Part shown: piece by piece, positions 2,770-48,744 of the stretch
Layout of the letters: every line of letters begins with the position of its first letter
How positions within the stretch are numbered: the first letter of the stretch is position 1
Source: Dehalococcoidia bacterium
Lineage (GTDB): Bacteria > Chloroflexota > Dehalococcoidia > Plut-88900
NCBI GenBank assembly: GCA_965207225.1
Contig: CBDBLV010000005.1
Coordinates: 1 to 64,000 of the forward strand
Reading direction: 5' to 3'
DNA: 64,000 bases
Position numbers and translations under genes: made by a program
Notes under the pieces: generated by a model
What the model was told of the DNA's origin: nothing
What the model saw: the letters and a program-made list of their open reading frames with translations, nothing else
Databases searched by the model: none

Positions 2770-4510
2770 GGTAACGCATGCGAGGGTTCGCCCCGCGGTG
2801 GAAAGCGTCGGGGATCGCGAAAGAGGTGGCGGGGCAGGCAGGGCAGTCTTGTGGCCCACTGGTCCAACTTCTGAAGCCGTATCAGATCCCGGAAGAGATC
2901 GGGGTCCAGCGATCTCAGCGGGTTGTCGGCCAAGTCCAGATACCGCAGGTGGGTAAGCCCGGCCAGGAGATCGGGATCCAGCACACTCAGGTCATTGAGG
3001 GCCAAGTCCAGCAGTTGCAGCCGAGGATTGTGGACGAAAAGGTCCGGCGGCAGCTTCTTCAGTTGGGTGCGGGAGAGGTCCAGGGTTAGCAGATGGGGAT
3101 TATGGGCAAAAAGGTCGGGAGGCAGTTCGGTCAGCGGATTGCCTTCCAGATCCAGTTCCTGCAGCTGGGGCAATGTGGCAAAAAGGTCCGAGGGCAGGAT
3201 AGTGAGGGTATTCCAGCAGGGCCAGTGCGAGTCCCGCCCGGGGCCCAGGTACAACTTGCGCAGCTGACCCATGTTGGCGAAGAGTGCCGGATCCAGCGTC
3301 GTCAGCCCGTTGCATCCCAGATCCAATACGTGCAGACTGGTGAGCCCTTTAAAGACCTCCGGGGCCAGGATCGTCAGCCGGTTGTAGGAAAGGTCCAAGT
3401 AACGCAGGTGGGGGGTGTGGACAAAGAGGTTAGGGGGCAATTCAGTCAGCCCGTTGCTTTTGGTGTCGCCGTGATCCCGCCAGGTGTGATCCCCCAGGTT
3501 CAACACCTCCAGAAGGGGAGTATGTGCGAACAGCCCGGGGGGTAGAGCTGTCAGCCGATTGTCGTCCAGTTCCAGCACCCGTAACTGCGGGTTGTGAAGA
3601 AAGAGGTCCGACGGCAGCGTGGTCAGGTTGTTGGAGGAGAGATTCAGCACCTCCAGGGCGGGAGTGTGGGTGAAGAGGTCCGATGACAGCATTTCCAGCT
3701 GGTAGCGGCTTAGGTGCAGAGTCTGCAGCCGGGGGTTGTGGGCGAACAAATCCGGCGGCAGCGGCGGAGCAGAACTACTGTAGCCGGTGGGCCACCGCGC
3801 CAGCTGCAGGTACCGCAGGCGGGGTAGAGCCGCTAGGAGATCCGGCGGCAAAGGGGGAACTGCGCTACTCGACCATACCAAGTTCAGGCCTTCCAAACGA
3901 GGGTTATGGGCGAACAGGTCCGAAGGCAGGGGGCTTGCTTCCTGCCAGTGCAGGTGTAGTGTCTGTAGTTGGGGCAGGCCAGCGAAGGGACTCCGGCGGT
4001 AGGGGACTTGCTTCCTGCCAGCGCAGGTGTAGTGTCTGTAGTTGGGGCAGGCCGGTGAAGAAATCCGGCGGTAGGGGGACTTGCTTCCTGCCAGTACAGG
4101 CGCAGTTCTTGCAGGTGGGGCAAGTTGGCCAGGAGATCCGGGGCCAGGATATCTGCACCATTCCACCCTGACCTGGCCCAAGAAACGAAGCCGAGATCCA
4201 GGGTCTGCAACTGGTCCAGGCCGACAAAGAGGCCGGAGGGCAGCTCTCCCAGCAGATTGTTGCCCCAAATCCAGAACTTGCAATTGGGGGGTGTGGGCAA
4301 AAAGATCCGCGGGCAGCGTGTCCAGGGCGAAATCATTCAGGTGCAGCTCCTGCAACTGGTCCAAGCCGGCAAAGAGGTCGGATGGCAGCGGAGCCAACCC
4401 CATGCTGATCCTGTTCCAGTTCTCAATACGTCTCTCTTGCCCAGAGGGATGGGCGAGGGCCCCAGCCTCCCAAGTGCAGGCTCCGCAACTGGTTCAGGTC
4501 GGCGAAGCGG
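2770..4510 (-). CDS. Long leucine-rich-repeat protein, 5'-truncated at the junction, frameshifted
   Basis: Many LPxDLFxxxPxLxxLxLxxNxL repeats (ORF 2442..4403 and alternate frames); the LRR pattern (FADLNQLRSLHLGG) continues up to ~4510; 3' boundary approximate. Confidence 0.8.
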
Positions 4511-7338: not shown

Positions 7339-8529
7339 ATGATGATGCAACCGAAAAGATGGCTGGGCAGACTGCTTTGTTGCCTGCTTGGGCTGATTGT
7401 CATGGCGGCGCTATCGGCATGTGGCTCCGACATGCCGCCAACAGCAGCGACGTCACCCGAACTCGATAGAGAAGCGTTAGTTGCACTGTACAACGCAACG
7501 GATGGCCCGAACTGGCGCAACAATGGAGGCTGGCTGAGCGATGCGCCTATAGGCGAATGGTACGGGGTAACTAGTAGGGAAGGCCGTGTTTCACAACTGG
7601 ATCTCAATATGAATGGATTGCGTGGGGAGATACCGGCAGGGTTGGGTGACCTGATCAAACTGAAATCGCTGAGGCTCAATGGCAATGATTTGAGTGGAGA
7701 GATACCGGCGGAACTGGGCAACCTCAGCAGCTTGGAATGGCTGAATCTCGGTCACAATGGATTAACTGAAGAGATACCGGCGGAACTGGGCAACCTGGCC
7801 AGCCTGAAAAGTCTGCTCCTCGGTACCAATAATCTGACCGGAGAGATACCACCGGAGTTGGGTGACCTCGCCAACCTGGAATCGCTGCGCCTCAGCTTCA
7901 ATAGAGTGAATGGCGAAATACCCCCGGAGTTGGGCGACCTTGCCAACCTGAAATGGTTATACCTCGATTTCAACGAGTTGAATGGAGAGATACCACCGGA
8001 GTTGGGTAACCTCGCCAACCTGGAAACTCTGTCTCTCGGTGACAATACATTGAGTGGAGAGATACCCCCAGAGTTGGGCAACCTTGCCAACCTTAAAGGG
8101 CTATTCCTCTCTAGCAACGAACTGAGTGGAGAGATACCGCCGGAGTTGGGCAAAATCCCCAAGCTTGGCGAGCTGTATCTCGGTGACAATGCATTGAGTG
8201 GAGAGATACCGCCGGAGTTGGGTAACCTTGTCAACCTGCTAGAGCTGGGCCTCAGCTACAATGCATTGAGTGGAGAGATACCACCGGAGTTGGGTGACCT
8301 TGTCAACCTGCTAATGCTGTTTCTCAACTACAATGACTTGAGTGGAGAGATACCGCCGGAGTTGGGTAACCTTGTCAACCTGCTAGTGCTGGACCTCAGC
8401 TATAACGACTTGAGTGGAGAAACACCGCCCGAGTTGGGTGACCTCGCTAACCTGAAAGCGCTGGACCTGAGCGACAATGACCTGAGTGGAGAAATACCGC
8501 ACAAGGAAGACCCAATTTACCCTAAGTAG
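7339..8529 (+). CDS. Plant-type LRR lipoprotein (eukaryotic-like protein)
   Basis: Lipobox LSACG, N-cap REALVALYNATDGPNW...WYGVT, 13 repeats of LxxLxLxxNxLSGEIPPELGxL. Confidence 0.92.
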   Translation: MMMQPKRWLGRLLCCLLGLIVMAALSACGSDMPPTAATSPELDREALVALYNATDGPNWRNNGGWLSDAPIGEWYGVTSREGRVSQLDLNMNGLRGEIPAGLGDLIKLKSLRLNGNDLSGEIPAELGNLSSLEWLNLGHNGLTEEIPAELGNLASLKSLLLGTNNLTGEIPPELGDLANLESLRLSFNRVNGEIPPELGDLANLKWLYLDFNELNGEIPPELGNLANLETLSLGDNTLSGEIPPELGNLANLKGLFLSSNELSGEIPPELGKIPKLGELYLGDNALSGEIPPELGNLVNLLELGLSYNALSGEIPPELGDLVNLLMLFLNYNDLSGEIPPELGNLVNLLVLDLSYNDLSGETPPELGDLANLKALDLSDNDLSGEIPHKEDPIYPK

Positions 8530-44788: not shown

Positions 44789-45175
44789 TCAGGGAATCTC
44801 TATCCTGCTAAGGCGGCCGGTCCTCCCAATTCGGAAGATATAAGGCCTTGGAGTCTGTGCCATCACCCCGAGGATGCGTTCGTATGCCCGAAGGAAGCAG
44901 AGGGTCTTTTCCCATCTCTTGGCCTCGCTGCCCCACAAATAGAAGCATCCCATCTGGTATTGCTTTATAGCGGAAAGTTCAGACTGTTCCAAGTGATGTC
45001 GGCTATCGTGACCGATTAGCGTCCACCCCCTACCGCCGATTTCCGACATCCACTCGTCGTCTGGAGAATCTATAGTGAAGTGCGTTTGGTGGTACTCGAT
45101 AGGGATCGGCAGTCTTAGAAGGCCCAGTGCCCTTGGTAGGGATGTGCCGACATCCCTGTCGAAGAAGAAAACCAC
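44789..45175 (-). CDS. PIN-like (VapC45-type) toxin
   Basis: FFFDRDVG, DDEWM..IGGRGW.LIGHD. Confidence 0.75.
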   Translation of the reverse strand: MVFFFDRDVGTSLPRALGLLRLPIPIEYHQTHFTIDSPDDEWMSEIGGRGWTLIGHDSRHHLEQSELSAIKQYQMGCFYLWGSEAKRWEKTLCFLRAYERILGVMAQTPRPYIFRIGRTGRLSRIEIP

Positions 45176-45177
45176 GA

Positions 45178-45864
45178 TTACGCCGGCACACCTTCGAATT
45201 GGAGCCCGCTGATAGCATCGTCAGATGAGATGCCGAAATCATCGACGATGTCGTCCAGGCTTTCGCCGGCGTTCCACCTACCCTTCAGCACCCAGGTAGG
45301 TATGCCGCTCACTGTGGGAGCGCCGAAGGAGAGTCGCGGATCGATCTTCACAGGTGAGTCCCTGCCGGCCAAGTGCCAGACGAGGGCCAGGTCATGCTCG
45401 TAATCAAACTCGGCTAGCCGGGCTGCCATCATTTTTTCCCACCCCAGTTGACCACCCACATCTGCCACGATTACTTCGTTTAGTATGGGTGCGTCTTCAT
45501 ACTCAGTCCACTGTAGCATCAACCTCATACCATCCGTTTTGAATCTATAGGCGGCGAAGGGGTATTCAGAGGAGAAAGTTGTCTGCATATATTGCCTTGT
45601 GCGGGCAATCGATTCCAGAGATACCCCTAGCTGACGAAACACAGCAACCACTGCGACTTCCACTAATTCCAGGTAGGAGAGGTGCTCTCGTGCAATGCGG
45701 CCGGATAAAGCTGCCGTACCGATAGGCAGTCGACGATGCGTCCAGTTTGTGACAGTTTGAGGAGTAACTCGGGAAAAACGCGCAGCATCAGCCACAGTGT
45801 AGGCGGGGAGGTACAGCCTCCTACGCCAAGGCTCTATTCCTCTTTCGGCTGTCATAATGGGCAT
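45178..45864 (-). CDS. DUF433-domain protein (VapB45-type antitoxin)
   Basis: N-terminal HTH (YTVADAARF), IDPRLSFGAPTVSG, AGESLDDIVDDF. Confidence 0.85.
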   Translation of the reverse strand: MPIMTAERGIEPWRRRLYLPAYTVADAARFSRVTPQTVTNWTHRRLPIGTAALSGRIAREHLSYLELVEVAVVAVFRQLGVSLESIARTRQYMQTTFSSEYPFAAYRFKTDGMRLMLQWTEYEDAPILNEVIVADVGGQLGWEKMMAARLAEFDYEHDLALVWHLAGRDSPVKIDPRLSFGAPTVSGIPTWVLKGRWNAGESLDDIVDDFGISSDDAISGLQFEGVPA

Positions 45865-45935
45865 TGTGGGTATCTTTCGTCTCGAGGACACTGTGGGATG
45901 TGCAGGTTCAATTGTAACAAACGTCGATATCCGGG

Positions 45936-46589
45936 CTACGCGCCCTTCACCGCCCGAGCTATGTACGCACACCCGAGCATGTAGTCCTGGCGCTCCAGGC
46001 TAGGCACGACCCTTTCCAGCTCGTCGTAGGGCTGGCCCTTGGCGAAGATCCTGTTCATAGATCCCCTGACCCCCACCCATCGCCACGTCCTGAACCGCAC
46101 CTGGAAATAGAGGTTGAACAGCGGGCCGAGGAGGCCCTGGGCGTGCTTAACTCCCCCGTTGACCAGCCGACCCCCGGGCGCCATTGCGTCGATCACCCGG
46201 GTCACGGCGGGCGGCGAGATTAGGACTTCGGGCACAAAGTAAGCCAATACTGCGTCCAGGGGGCCGGGGATATCCACCTCCCGGGCGTCGCCCTGTATCA
46301 GGGTCACATTTTCCCAGCCGTTCCGTTCGACCTTCTCCCGGGCGATGTCCAGCATGTCCGGGCTGAGTTCCACGCCGATGATCCTACCCTCGGGCCCGAC
46401 ACCCTGCTGGAGCATATCGAAGCTGAGCCCTGTACCGCATCCCAGGTCCAGGACCGTTTCTCCGGGTTTCAGGTCCAGGCGTCGGATGGCGTAGGGCCGG
46501 ATGCGGTCAGAGAAACGTTTGCCCTTGTCGTAGTCGGCGGCGTGGAGCCGGTAGCGGTCCCTCTGGACCTGGGGATCGTAGGTGTTCAT
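45936..46589 (-). CDS. Class I SAM-dependent methyltransferase (paralog 1)
   Basis: VLDLGCGTG, GVELSPDML, QGDA. Confidence 0.92.
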   Translation of the reverse strand: MNTYDPQVQRDRYRLHAADYDKGKRFSDRIRPYAIRRLDLKPGETVLDLGCGTGLSFDMLQQGVGPEGRIIGVELSPDMLDIAREKVERNGWENVTLIQGDAREVDIPGPLDAVLAYFVPEVLISPPAVTRVIDAMAPGGRLVNGGVKHAQGLLGPLFNLYFQVRFRTWRWVGVRGSMNRIFAKGQPYDELERVVPSLERQDYMLGCAYIARAVKGA

Positions 46590-46596
46590 GGGGAAG

Positions 46597-47250
46597 CTAT
46601 TTGTCCCTGGTTGCCCGGGCCACGTAGACGCAGCCGTAAAAGTAGTTCCATAGCTCCAGGTTGGGGGAGGCAGCTTTCAGGGTGTCATAGGGCTGGCCCC
46701 TGCCGATCATCCTTTTGACGACCCGCTTCATTCCCACCCATCGCCAGGTCCTCCACCTCGCCTGGAAATAGATATTGAAGAGGGGGCCAAGGGGCCCGCG
46801 CGCATGCTTTACGCCGGATGCCACGAGTCTGCCGCCGGGGCCAAGCGAGTCGAGGGCGCGGCGAATGGCCGGAGGCAAATAGAGAATCTCCGGCACGAAA
46901 AAGGCCAGTACAGCATCGACGGGGCCGGGGATTTCTACGGCGCTGGCATCACCTTCGATGAGGGTAACGTTGGTCCAGCCGTTGAGCTCGACCCTTTGGC
47001 GGGCCAGCTCCATCATCTCGGGGCTCAGCTCCAGGCCGATAATCCGCCCCTCGGGCCCGACATCCCGATGAAGCCGTTCGAAGCTTATGCCCGTACCGCA
47101 ACCGAGATCGAGAACTGTTTCTCCCGGTTTTAGATCGAGGTGTTGGAACGAAGCGTCCCGGACGCCGTCCAGCCAACTCATGGCGCTATCGTAGGTGGCG
47201 GCGAAGTCACGGTAGCGGTCTCTGGCGCCTCGGGAGTCGGGGGTGGTCAT
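46597..47250 (-). CDS. Class I SAM-dependent methyltransferase (paralog 2)
   Basis: VLDLGCGTG, GLELSPEM, EGDA; same 217-aa length as paralog 1. Confidence 0.92.
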   Translation of the reverse strand: MTTPDSRGARDRYRDFAATYDSAMSWLDGVRDASFQHLDLKPGETVLDLGCGTGISFERLHRDVGPEGRIIGLELSPEMMELARQRVELNGWTNVTLIEGDASAVEIPGPVDAVLAFFVPEILYLPPAIRRALDSLGPGGRLVASGVKHARGPLGPLFNIYFQARWRTWRWVGMKRVVKRMIGRGQPYDTLKAASPNLELWNYFYGCVYVARATRDK

Positions 47251-47275
47251 GGATTGCGCCCAGTTAGGGGATGGG

Positions 47276-47392
47276 GATTGATTGAGCTCGATTGAAGGTT
47301 GATTGAACGTGATTGTAGTTGATTGATCATCGATTGAACTTGATTGAAGGTTGATTGAACGTTGATTGAATGCGTAGCTAGTTTGATTGAAT
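47276..47392. repeat. Helically phased array of GATTG(AA) direct repeats
   Basis: Motif starts at 47280, 47290, 47301, 47311, 47321, 47332, 47342, 47353, 47364 and 47385 (spacings 10/11, one 21). Confidence 0.9.
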
Positions 47393-47512
47393 GACGCCTA
47401 AATGTTGGAGAAAAGTTTTTCACTGTGTTTGGGAGAGGATTGTGAGGGTATGGATATTGGGTGGGCATGGAAGATTTAGCGGAATGCAGGTGGTGAGTAG
47501 GGACTCGGCTGA

Positions 47513-47542
47513 ATTATAGCACAGACGTTTTGTCAGAATCAA
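47513..47542 (-). promoter_or_regulatory. Putative sigma70 promoter firing toward the repeat array and methyltransferases
   Basis: TTGATT-N18-TATAAT with an extended -10 (TGcTATAAT) on the minus strand. Confidence 0.6.
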
Positions 47543-47566
47543 GGGGATGGACATGGGGGATTATAC

Positions 47567-47781
47567 GCCTGCCAGCCCTACGAATATCGACAGTCAAAGG
47601 TGTTTGTGCTAGATTGCCCATTGCGAAAGACACCTGGCGTCACTTTGTGTGCCGACGCTGGGATAAAGGCATGGGTTTCTCCATGCCCCCTTGTGACCTT
47701 AGCGTTGGCACAGGTGTCTTTCGCAGGAACCCTGCCCGTTGCAAGGGGGCACCTTGTTGGGACTCTGCGTTTCTGGCAGGC
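47567..47781. ncRNA. Candidate structured element/ncRNA (nested inverted repeats, rod-like)
   Basis: 9-bp, 15-bp, 10-bp and 7-bp nested stems in an intergenic region; family not recognised. Confidence 0.5.
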
Positions 47782-47832
47782 CACTCCCTTTAACGGGACG
47801 AACAACTACCTATAACGTAAAGGCGAACTGCC

Positions 47833-48744
47833 ATGCACCGTTTCAGAATCTTCCGGTATCTTCTTGTCAGGCTATTAGTCGGAGCCGCGTTAATCCTAGC
47901 CATTCTGATGGTGGCTGTTGGGTGCTCGTCTGAAGCACCCGGGGCAATGATACCCGTTGAACGTGCCGATTCTCCTACTCCTCAACCGGATGCTACTGCA
48001 GGGTCGACAAGAGACTCTACGGAAGCGCCGTCACTCACCGATACGCCACGCCCAACCCCGACACCGCGCCCTACGCCTACACCTGAGAGCCGAGTAGCAA
48101 CAAGTGGGATATGTTCTCCAGTTGATTACTCTGAGATTTGGGTGGTCCTGACACCATATGTAAAGGGTGTTGCATGTATAGAGACGGATGAAAGGCATGG
48201 TTCCGGTTTTGTAATTGAGAACACTGATTCGGGAGAGGGTATCCTGTTAACTAATGCTCACGTGTTAGGATTTGATCCTGAATACATCACGGTTCATTTA
48301 GACAATGTTGTTTACAGTGCTGAAATAGTGAAAATTAGTGAAGAGCAAGACTTGGCGATGTTGCGAATCTGCTGTGGCAGTTTTAATGCATTGGATATGG
48401 CAGAGAGGTATGTGGAATTATATGAAGCTATAGTCGTTTTAGGATTTCCCGATGGGGAGTTTTATTACAGCTACGGATTCGTAAATGATTCGATAGATGG
48501 ACATTACACAACCTCTGCTGCTGCATATCCAGGCAGTAGTGGCAGCCCAATGTTAATGACCACGTTGACAGGTATAGAAATTGGAGAAAAGGGAATACTG
48601 CAAAACCAATTCTCCAAGCGTTTTGAAAATGGCGGTAAGCTGATAGTGGCAGGAATTATAACGGCTAAAGAGAGGCATTCTTATGGAGCCGCGTATGCTA
48701 TCTCTCATCACGACGTAAGTGAGTTTGTCGCTGGTGACTGGTAA
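47833..48744 (+). CDS. Trypsin-like serine protease lipoprotein with Pro/Thr linker
   Basis: Lipobox AVGC, PTPTPRPTPTP, GSGF, TNAHV, DLAML, PGSSGSP; lower GC. Confidence 0.85.
   Translation: MHRFRIFRYLLVRLLVGAALILAILMVAVGCSSEAPGAMIPVERADSPTPQPDATAGSTRDSTEAPSLTDTPRPTPTPRPTPTPESRVATSGICSPVDYSEIWVVLTPYVKGVACIETDERHGSGFVIENTDSGEGILLTNAHVLGFDPEYITVHLDNVVYSAEIVKISEEQDLAMLRICCGSFNALDMAERYVELYEAIVVLGFPDGEFYYSYGFVNDSIDGHYTTSAAAYPGSSGSPMLMTTLTGIEIGEKGILQNQFSKRFENGGKLIVAGIITAKERHSYGAAYAISHHDVSEFVAGDW

Follow-up and report, generated by a model that had tools for sequence, protein, structure and literature searches.

A helically phased CAATC array upstream of two methyltransferase genes in a Dehalococcoidia bacterium is one copy of a dispersed, genus-restricted intergenic repeat

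Modular intergenic repeats are exemplified by the BOX elements of Streptococcus pneumoniae, which follow a boxA-boxB(n)-boxC plan with a boxB of about 45 nt and can fold into structured RNA. Direct repeats phased at 10-11 bp, which present sites on one face of the DNA, are known from parC of plasmid R1, tubC and plasmid iterons, and operators of the OmpR/PhoB family (e.g. pho boxes) are head-to-tail repeats of 10-11 bp period located upstream of, or overlapping, the -35 element. To our knowledge, almost no regulatory or repeat biology has been described for the uncultured Dehalococcoidia. BrickBuilt, a MITE (miniature inverted-repeat transposable element) from Porphyromonas gingivalis with an internal minisatellite, is present in 19 strictly intergenic copies per genome and has promoter activity, according to the available text of PMC4596501; the available text of PMC10969869 names BOX elements, and describes the Correia elements of Neisseria as lying mostly right upstream of genes and carrying both sigma-70-like promoters able to drive the neighbouring gene and a site for the DNA-bending protein IHF. 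Here we analyse a window of 64,000 nt from a Dehalococcoidia bacterium (assembly GCA_965207225.1, contig CBDBLV010000005.1, positions 1 to 64,000, i.e. the start of the contig termed C5 below), in which an earlier note had picked out ten GATTG(AA) motifs, phased at one helical turn and lying between a promoter and two methyltransferase genes, as a strong candidate for an undescribed cis-element. We find that this array is one copy of a dispersed, modular, genus-restricted intergenic repeat, and constitutes its variable-number tandem module. Literature searches by motif (TTCAATCAA, TTGATTGAA and 11-mers) and by topic, with subscription-only papers and supplements falling outside, returned no description of the family, the motif matches listed being primers or unrelated eukaryotic sites.

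The array itself is as the note had described it. On the forward strand the hexamer GATTGA starts at 47276, 47280, 47290, 47301, 47321, 47332, 47342, 47353, 47364 and 47385, and the unit at 47311 is degenerate (GATTGT), a form that the note's GATTG(AA) notation admits. Counted from 47280, successive units lie 10, 11, 10, 10, 11, 10, 11, 11 and 21 bp apart, i.e. 105 bp over 10 periods with a mean of 10.5 bp, and Tandem Repeats Finder reports the tract (47278-47370) at period 11 (8.8 copies, score 102) and at period 21 (4.4 copies, score 92). The exact 21-nt block gattgaaggttgattgaacgt does recur 52 bp apart, at 47290 and 47342, and the context holds, in that a sigma-70-like site and both methyltransferase genes are found on the minus strand (hereafter the gene strand; Table 1). 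GATTGA is not enriched over the window as a whole (26 occurrences observed versus 27.3 expected from shuffles), and 10 of these 26 fall within the 115 bp of the array.

Genome-wide motif and pattern counts place this locus among many. In the 4.03-Mb assembly to which the window belongs (G000), GATTGA forms 36 clusters of at least three hits (gaps of up to 24 bp), five control hexamers of similar or lower frequency forming none, and a pattern of three units scores 45 matches, which represent about 25 loci (reversed control, 0). All GATTGA clusters terminate in one common sequence. The anchor, the best-conserved part of the family at about 38 nt, reads ..TTTAGGCGTC(A/G)TTCAATCAAA(C/A)CAGCTACGAG on the gene strand and identifies 39 loci in G000, whether sought as a 24-nt anchor (up to 5 substitutions) or as a 38-nt pattern (up to 3 mismatches). 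Next come between 1 and 10 units, each (G)TTCAATCAA with two variable nucleotides, spaced by 11 or 10 bp, and after them, in many copies, AAAACCCCACCCCC; a copy measures about 60-300 nt, and no open reading frame (ORF) is conserved among copies. Across 278 units from 84 arrays, the TT of positions -2/-1 is kept in 94-98% and the AA of positions +5/+6 in 93-97%, with 0.18-0.44 bit at the linker positions, and unit spacing takes the values 11 bp (169 of 194) and 10 bp (25 of 194) and no other. Both the unit logo and the spacing are conditioned on an exact CAATC, and unit counts are lower bounds because the array walk halts at the first unit lacking it. Related arrays are also present in sister species, among the eight other species of the genus considered below as G001-G008. 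The proposal that the array is a special cis-element of the methyltransferase locus consequently has to be given up, in view of the 39 dispersed copies, the presence of an array at none of five orthologous loci and the nature of the window copy as a lineage-specific insertion with its own promoter-like site. That no gene for a cognate binding protein lies nearby is no puzzle either, because with 39 dispersed copies such a factor can be encoded anywhere.

Copies of the element occur in short and long forms. Short forms comprise 1-4 units, mostly with 11+11 spacing; CCACGCGAAATCCCCAGAAATCCC and, in many cases, further repeat modules stand in front of them. Units number 6-10 in eight G000 copies, that of the window included. 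The window copy shares a different left module, CCATGCCCAACCCAAAATCC...GTGAAAAyTTTCTCTCC, and a tendency to alternate 10- and 11-bp spacings (mean 10.5) with the copies at C1:52451, C5:298314 and C5:1229674, and TGCTATAAT stands further upstream in the first two of these as well as in the window. Long forms come with a promoter-like site of the extended -10 type and with a leader of 200-250 nt that is poor in G. Two more CAATCAA motifs, 29 nt apart, are contributed by a further repeat module, AACAATCAAA..GTGCCTGAA..GCAAAACAATCAA (hereafter the second module), which accompanies many sister-species copies; as AACAATCAAAgccGTGCCTGAAAnnGCAAAACAATCAA it is located at 20 loci in G000 (e.g. C3:162475-162512 and C5:316104-316141), and it is found in the four element-rich species (20, 31, 22 and 11 copies), with almost none in the others. 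Abundant palindromes resembling repetitive extragenic palindromic (REP) sequences (..CCCTCTCCCT..AGGGAGAGGGGGATCAAGGGGGTGAGGGTTCCC..) adjoin CAATCAA elements as mosaics, e.g. upstream of rpsB and at C5:73710-73800.

The distribution of the family is narrow. A two-unit pattern occurs in seven of the eight other species of the genus (reversed controls, 0) and in none of the 32 other genera sampled from the family and class, and anchor counts within the genus are 45 (G005), 39 (G000), 34 (G008), 15 (G007), 8 (G006), 4 (G001), 4 (G002), 2 (G003) and 0 (G004). With one genome taken per species, the three-unit pattern is found at 61 loci, of which 46, accompanied by the anchor, lie in four closed chromosomes of metagenome-assembled Dehalococcoidia bacterium genomes; the other 15 lie in unrelated organisms, lack the anchor, and we take them to be chance matches or other tandem repeats. 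Since the four closed chromosomes carry such copies, the 39 copies in G000 are unlikely to be assembly artefacts.

Many copies are shared between species at the same place. At least 22 of the 39 G000 copies have a downstream flank in common with an array-bearing locus in another species, a lower bound in that the comparison took in only arrays with three exact units, and a copy at a dehydrogenase gene (see below) adds one more. Upstream of gyrB the element ends at the identical nucleotide in four species with differing numbers of units, the array extending past the anchor 38-mer by 11 nt in G000, 22 nt in G005 and 0 nt in G008; at recA the corresponding lengths are 33 nt in G000 and 74 nt in G005. 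Upstream of rpsB the element is present in three species, and in G007 all that stands there is the second module joined to the last unit, an arrangement resembling the product of a deletion between CAATCAA motifs; neither rpsB nor gyrB is preceded by an array in G001 and G004. When five orthologous loci of G000 and G005 are aligned, the anchor is 0.89-0.97 identical, as against 0.53-0.80 for the 100 nt upstream and 0.78-0.96 for the 100 nt on the promoter side, and anchor variants are near-uniform in G005 and mixed in G000. The family thus appears to be mostly old and vertically inherited, with occasional gain, loss and change of unit number, its core sequence being held constant by either selection or gene conversion.

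Filled and empty sites were compared in detail at two loci, those of the methyltransferases and of a 2-hydroxyacid dehydrogenase. The methyltransferase tandem pair has orthologues in G001, G004, G005, G007 and G008 (72-89% identity), and at all five loci the first gene is leaderless, i.e. a TATAAT box, a C-rich stretch of 7 nt and the ATG follow one another directly and run straight into codon 2 (..GGCGTATAATCCCCCCATG in G008), with no TCAATC motif in the 300 nt upstream. In the window, GGCGTATAATCCCCCATG at 47569-47552 matches the sequence right before the start codon in these five species, and about 301 nt (47551-47251) separate it from ATG ACC ACC CCC GAC, which resumes at 47250. On this alignment the window copy is a lineage-specific insertion, which parts codon 2 of a once leaderless methyltransferase gene from the -10 box and ATG that used to precede it. 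The promoter-start segment is present at both of its junctions as an imperfect duplication of 16-24 nt, CTGGGCGCAATCCATG on the right resembling CTGGCAGGCGTATAATCCCCCATG on the left, and the gene now has about 255 nt of leader in front of it, in which no Shine-Dalgarno sequence is obvious; given the overlapping ATGA, translation of the gene may be coupled to that of the upstream ORF. A contig from another study's run (labelled sponge metagenome) spans 46400-47787 in one piece with 92 differences (~93% identity) and the same insertion, none of the listed indels falling inside the array, so the insertion is stable in a relative differing by about 7%. At the dehydrogenase locus the long form is present in G000, G008 and G005 and missing from G007, G001 and G004, where the empty site consists of an unbroken TTGACA-17-CATAAT promoter and a 45-nt leader with AGGAGG; at the filled site the element occupies the place of the former -10 box and brings its own TGCTATAAT. 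No clean duplication flanks the dehydrogenase copy, the comparison of target duplications resting on two sites only. Leaderless starts (TATAAT-like box, 7 nt, ATG) were noted at the methyltransferase orthologues, in the window remnant and at recA, which suggests that leaderless mRNAs are perhaps common in the genus.

The context of the copies was assessed with gene calls from a crude ORF-based heuristic and with promoters assigned by consensus matches. In 31 of 39 copies a co-directional gene begins beyond the array end (the unfiltered calls give 30 of 39), and at least one of the eight exceptions is a miscall, as recA starts 36 nt from its array; on the anchor side, no more than 13 of the 39 neighbouring genes run in the direction of the element. 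The genes faced include those for S15 (rpsO), S2 (rpsB), GyrB, RecA, Glu/Gln-tRNA synthetase, fructose-bisphosphatase, a tRNA, three CoA-transferases, sulfite or nitrite reductase, amidohydrolases and an ABC ATPase, with no single functional theme seen among those faced by the 39 copies. In short forms a recognisable promoter, either TTGACA-17-TAnnnT or extended -10 (TGnTAnnAT), is located between array and gene; with a strict regular expression 16 of 38 copies have one ahead of the start, and inspection by eye adds others. Several of the genes faced are leaderless, and the recA array stops near -36 in each of three species. Judged by the sign of local GC skew, 28 copies have their gene-like strand as 'lagging' and 11 as 'leading', but skew is an unreliable marker of replication here because the genes themselves show no skew-linked bias (1137 versus 1116).

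The array is non-coding, as the earlier note had supposed. Its CAATC cores are split 4/4/4 over the reading frames of the 73-codon ORF that crosses it, an ORF which is open by construction because the unit, read on the gene strand, is free of stop triplets in all three frames, and the equivalent ORF stops after about 15, 52 or 85 codons (judged by eye) in the three orthologous dehydrogenase-locus copies. Related arrays have mostly 11-nt spacings, two units making 22 nt rather than a coding period of 21 nt, and their very existence sets the window array apart from a unique product of simple slippage. These frames and spacings, with the lack of ORF conservation between orthologues, rule out a coding tandem repeat. 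The 271-nt leader has a minimum free energy (MFE) of -18.8 kcal/mol against -21.1 +/- 3.3 for shuffles (z = +0.72), and an Rfam search yields no family at threshold, the sole row at E <= 1 (CRISPR-DR36, 20.8 bits versus a gathering cutoff of 38) being one that we take to be chance; a structured RNA or a known RNA family is ruled out on both counts. On the gene strand the leader has C 0.35 and G 0.09, and the array C 0.28 and G 0.08.

Nor does the family fit a classical MITE or REP. It is short and non-coding, with 39 copies and presence/absence at orthologous sites, as expected of a MITE, but terminal inverted repeats were not found: the two ends of the window copy are not linked by any inverted repeat, and the ends of the copies are unrelated in alignments. 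An origin as REP or bacterial interspersed mosaic elements (BIMEs), with a REP-associated tyrosine transposase (RAYT) or IS200-type enzyme, is ruled out because the repeats are direct and unstructured and because Y1_Tnp (PF01797) is found in none of the nine genus genomes, control genomes having scored. IS110-type genes (PF01548) occur in four of nine genomes (G005, G002, G006 and G004), with none in G000, G008 and G007, and are abundant in G004, which has no elements; mobilisation by IS110-type enzymes is not supported, as PF01548 does not track element numbers. No matching transposase was thus found, the screen of the genus genomes having covered the Y1_Tnp and IS110 families only and other transposase families not having been searched. 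A plasmid or phage origin is likewise rejected, with no similarity to plasmid or phage records in the collections searched. In G005, IS110-family genes (e.g. C1:593437-593877 and 2717469-2717909) lie within about 1-2 kb of CAATCAA elements (595176 and 2716728), possibly a sign of insertion into intergenic regions rich in repeats. G000 has four copies of an insertion sequence of the IS481 family (about 1313 bp, with rve and HTH domains), inserted in the loop of a REP-like palindrome (between ..GGCCATTG and TATAGACCGGGG..), and two of these (C1, ~39.1-40.4 kb; C4, ~457.4-458.7 kb) lie 137-175 nt from a CAATCAA element; its ends are unrelated to the element, and it is dismissed as a source.

We read the array as a set of phased DNA binding sites for a putative trans-acting factor, carried on a portable cassette, and give this reading an even chance of being correct; the estimate covers the reading as a whole, its doubt falling on protein binding and any effect on transcription rather than on family membership, anatomy, orientation bias, insertion polymorphism, unit-number variation, non-coding nature or conservation, which are observed. 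Near-invariant 9-nt cores, one per helical turn, would offer a trans-acting protein multiple sites on one face of double-stranded DNA, its occupancy of successive cores would depend on unit number, and the cassette would influence, or be maintained at, the adjacent promoter. Recognition of this kind is favoured because a phased core with free linkers is combined with a conserved anchor, a fixed polarity and long retention at the same genes, and it is placed on double-stranded DNA because most copies lie upstream of the promoter of the gene that they face. The 11-bp head-to-tail geometry would suit an OmpR/PhoB-type regulator, a nucleoid-associated protein or a recombinase that maintains the element being equally possible. 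The protein-binding platform envisaged in the earlier note, be it for protein loading or for DNA bending, is therefore retained as a hypothesis in one respect, since phased cores with variable linkers fit it better than an origin by coding or by slippage alone, and abandoned in the other, as a site special to the methyltransferase locus. A more far-reaching version, which we advance only tentatively, is that a clade-specific DNA-binding protein (OmpR/PhoB-like or a new nucleoid protein) polymerises head-to-tail on phased TTCAATCAA arrays, so that some 15-45 promoters per genome, including those of recA, gyrB, rpsB and rpsO, would come under one control with unit number tuning occupancy, and the long form would be a mobile promoter-and-leader cassette that makes a leaderless gene leadered. 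Several points weigh against the binding-site reading. A binder of the cores remains hypothetical; the distance from array to promoter ranges over about 18-86 nt with no preferred helical phase, so that a classical activator acting from a fixed position, or an UP-like mechanism, is unlikely; of the eight arrays with at least six units, four face the 3' end of a convergent gene instead of a start; and the gene calls are crude enough for some orientations to be wrong, as at recA. Outside the array, the composite's CAATCAA motifs are separated by 29 and by about 60-73 nt, distances that do not divide cleanly by 10.5, in a count that allowed one mismatch and includes some spurious offsets (e.g. 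25 in place of 21). Finally, 28 of the 45 G005 anchors match the 38-nt pattern exactly and nearly all are one variant, which gene conversion or recent spread could explain without selection.

The last point would also be expected of a functionless minisatellite, generated by slippage within a selfish or decaying interspersed repeat, kept alike by gene conversion and tolerated where it inserts upstream of genes. This explanation, which we consider doubtful, accommodates the variation of unit number between orthologues, the deletion-like rpsB locus of G007, the 21-nt superunit of long arrays with its exact block 52 bp apart, the range of 0 to 45 copies among nine species of one genus, the homogeneity of anchor variants within species, and the existence of both filled and empty orthologous sites. 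Slippage or conversion should, however, homogenise the linkers too, and yet 9 nt of each unit are near-invariant when the two linker nucleotides are almost free; at least 22 of 39 copies have stayed at the same loci though their intergenic flanks have diverged to 53-80% identity, and the orientation bias (31 of 39) requires an extra assumption. A role at the RNA level, which we regard as unlikely, would make of the array a C-rich, G-poor, unstructured segment of leader or read-through transcript that, with UC every 10-11 nt, serves as a Rho-loading (rut) site or sets downstream translation, e.g. by coupling through the ATGA-overlapping ORF. Rho prefers unstructured RNA with more C than G and spaced YC, and the composition of leader and array, the lack of predicted structure, the fixed orientation relative to the downstream gene, the presence of a rho gene in the genome and the placement of the window and C5:298314 arrays between promoter-like site and start codon, 30-33 nt from the ATG, all agree with this. 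Most copies are nevertheless short forms upstream of a recognisable promoter, which would be transcribed only by read-through, the anchor-side gene is co-directional in a minority of copies by the crude calls, and the long arrays pointing into the end of a convergent gene count against this role as well. That the array encodes a heptad-repeat peptide, SINxQSx, within the 73-codon ORF is very improbable: the stop overlapping the methyltransferase start, the alternating 10/11 spacing equal to a 21-nt, seven-codon period and, in several long forms, an ATG beside the -10 box that shares the frame of the anchor (by eye) would fit such a product, but an open frame is expected of units without stop triplets, the nucleotides are conserved whatever the frame, most arrays are 11+11 spaced and upstream of promoters, and neither the length of the ORF in orthologous copies nor a Pfam match speaks for a protein. 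Least credible of all is the locus-specific centromere-like (parC, tubC) or iteron site for partition or replication suggested in the earlier note, for which the resemblance of 10-11 bp phased direct repeats to the parC iterons is the one supporting point; the copies are dispersed over the chromosome, their neighbours are methyltransferase, peptidase, metabolic or housekeeping genes with no partition or replication gene among them, the orthologous locus lacks the array in five species, and no plasmid or phage record is similar.

Table 1. Features of the window copy and its immediate neighbourhood (positions in the 64,000-nt window; all on the minus strand).
Feature	Positions	Strand	Description
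Array of 10 phased units	47276..47392	-	unit, as read on the gene strand, TTCAATCAA followed by 1-3 nt of linker
Anchor module AGGCGTCATTCAATCAAACTAGCTACGCATTCAATCAA	47362..47399	-	lone unit, conserved 12-nt gap, first array unit; 3 mismatches to the 38-nt family pattern
Long-form left module CCATGCCCACCCAATATCC...GTGAAAAACTTTTCTCC	47400..47470	-	common to C1:52451, C5:298314 and C5:1229674 by alignment
Promoter-like site within insertion	47513..47542	-	sigma-70-like, 10/12 consensus positions; -35 TTGATT 47542-47537, 18-nt spacer, TG present at 47521-47520, -10 TATAAT 47518-47513; TGCTATAAT is its homologue in other long forms
Lineage-specific insertion, ~301 nt	47251..47551	-	promoter-like site, left module, anchor and array in order; boundaries approximate
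Remnant of ancestral leaderless promoter and start	47552..47565	-	TATAAT 47565-47560, CCCCC, ATG 47554-47552
Degenerate second promoter-start segment, right junction	47248..47263	-	CTGGGCGCAATCCATG; includes present start codon 47250-47248
73-codon ORF across array	47247..47468	-	TGA overlaps methyltransferase ATG (ATGA); no Pfam match; judged non-gene
Class-I S-adenosylmethionine (SAM) methyltransferase, 217 aa, downstream of element	46597..47250	-	Methyltransf_25, E = 1.1e-16
Second, paralogous SAM methyltransferase, 217 aa	45936..46589	-	class-I by domain search

Three further features of the window were noted apart from the element. Downstream of both methyltransferases, on the minus strand, a PIN_10-domain ORF (44789-45175) directly follows an ORF with a C-terminal DUF433 (45178-45972), and the two may be a toxin-antitoxin-like pair. 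On the plus strand a single-copy, very stable imperfect hairpin at 47620-47727 (MFE -60.5 kcal/mol for a 120-nt segment, z = -6.7, matched by 0 of 200 shuffles) adjoins an upstream promoter-like site (47587-47615) and precedes a trypsin-like peptidase gene (47833-48744) by about 100 nt; it has no Rfam match at E <= 1, and could be a structured 5' leader of that gene. Tandem repeats at 1382-1811, 3909-4141 and 7617-8500 are built on 72 nt (24 codons; periods 72, 144 and 216), and their translated consensus looks like leucine-rich-repeat coding sequence.

The family provides a compact, countable cis-element, with 0-45 copies per genome, in front of core genes such as recA, gyrB, rpsB and rpsO, and its variation in unit number between species amounts to a natural variant series for the action of phased sites on promoters. 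At the window locus, an insertion has clearly parted a leaderless promoter and start codon from their gene, to which it has brought a long leader together with a new promoter-like site. In metagenomes the family can serve as a marker of the genus, and is also a source of assembly breaks. Should a binder exist, its regulon would be readable directly from the copies; should there be none, the element would be a well-defined interspersed repeat that bears a minisatellite and has no inverted ends.

Comparison with described systems brings out what is particular to the element. The parC, tubC and iteron sites are single loci beside their cognate partition or replication genes, in contrast to the 39 dispersed chromosomal copies found here with no such genes nearby. 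Its head-to-tail spacing (169 x 11 bp, 25 x 10 bp) and the end of the recA array at about -36 are shared with OmpR/PhoB operators; those sites are not, however, known to be contained in a conserved cassette of 40-100 nt copied to some 40 loci, and the core here takes up 9 of 11 nt rather than 6-7, at no fixed distance from the promoter and for a regulator that is hypothetical. With BOX it has in common a modular intergenic build, variable internal tandem modules and frequent clustering with other repeats (here REP-like palindromes and the second module), whereas the present array is unstructured and of helical-turn period, boxB measures about 45 nt and BOX elements can fold into structured RNA. 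More generally, a conserved flanking module with variable tandem units, an intergenic position and restriction to one genus among 33 sampled are traits of the BOX/BrickBuilt type, a likeness of architecture only. As far as the available text of PMC4596501 describes it, BrickBuilt resembles the element in being multi-copy, intergenic and of limited host range, with a conserved 'leader' and 'tail' around variable short tandem units and with promoter elements; its units are given there as 23 nt without spacers, unlike the 10-11 nt units here with a 9-nt core plus linker and one core per helical turn, and it has small inverted-repeat ends of which none were found in the present element. Placement upstream of genes and carriage of a promoter are shared with the Correia elements, whose site for a host DNA-bending protein (IHF) is a further parallel to the proposed role of the array; the available text of PMC10969869 presents them as typical MITEs with terminal inverted repeats, and they are not known to have an internal phased tandem array. 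The element thus differs from described modular repeats in its helical-turn period of core plus linker, its lack of inverted ends, and its occurrence in two forms, one of them a promoter-plus-leader cassette.

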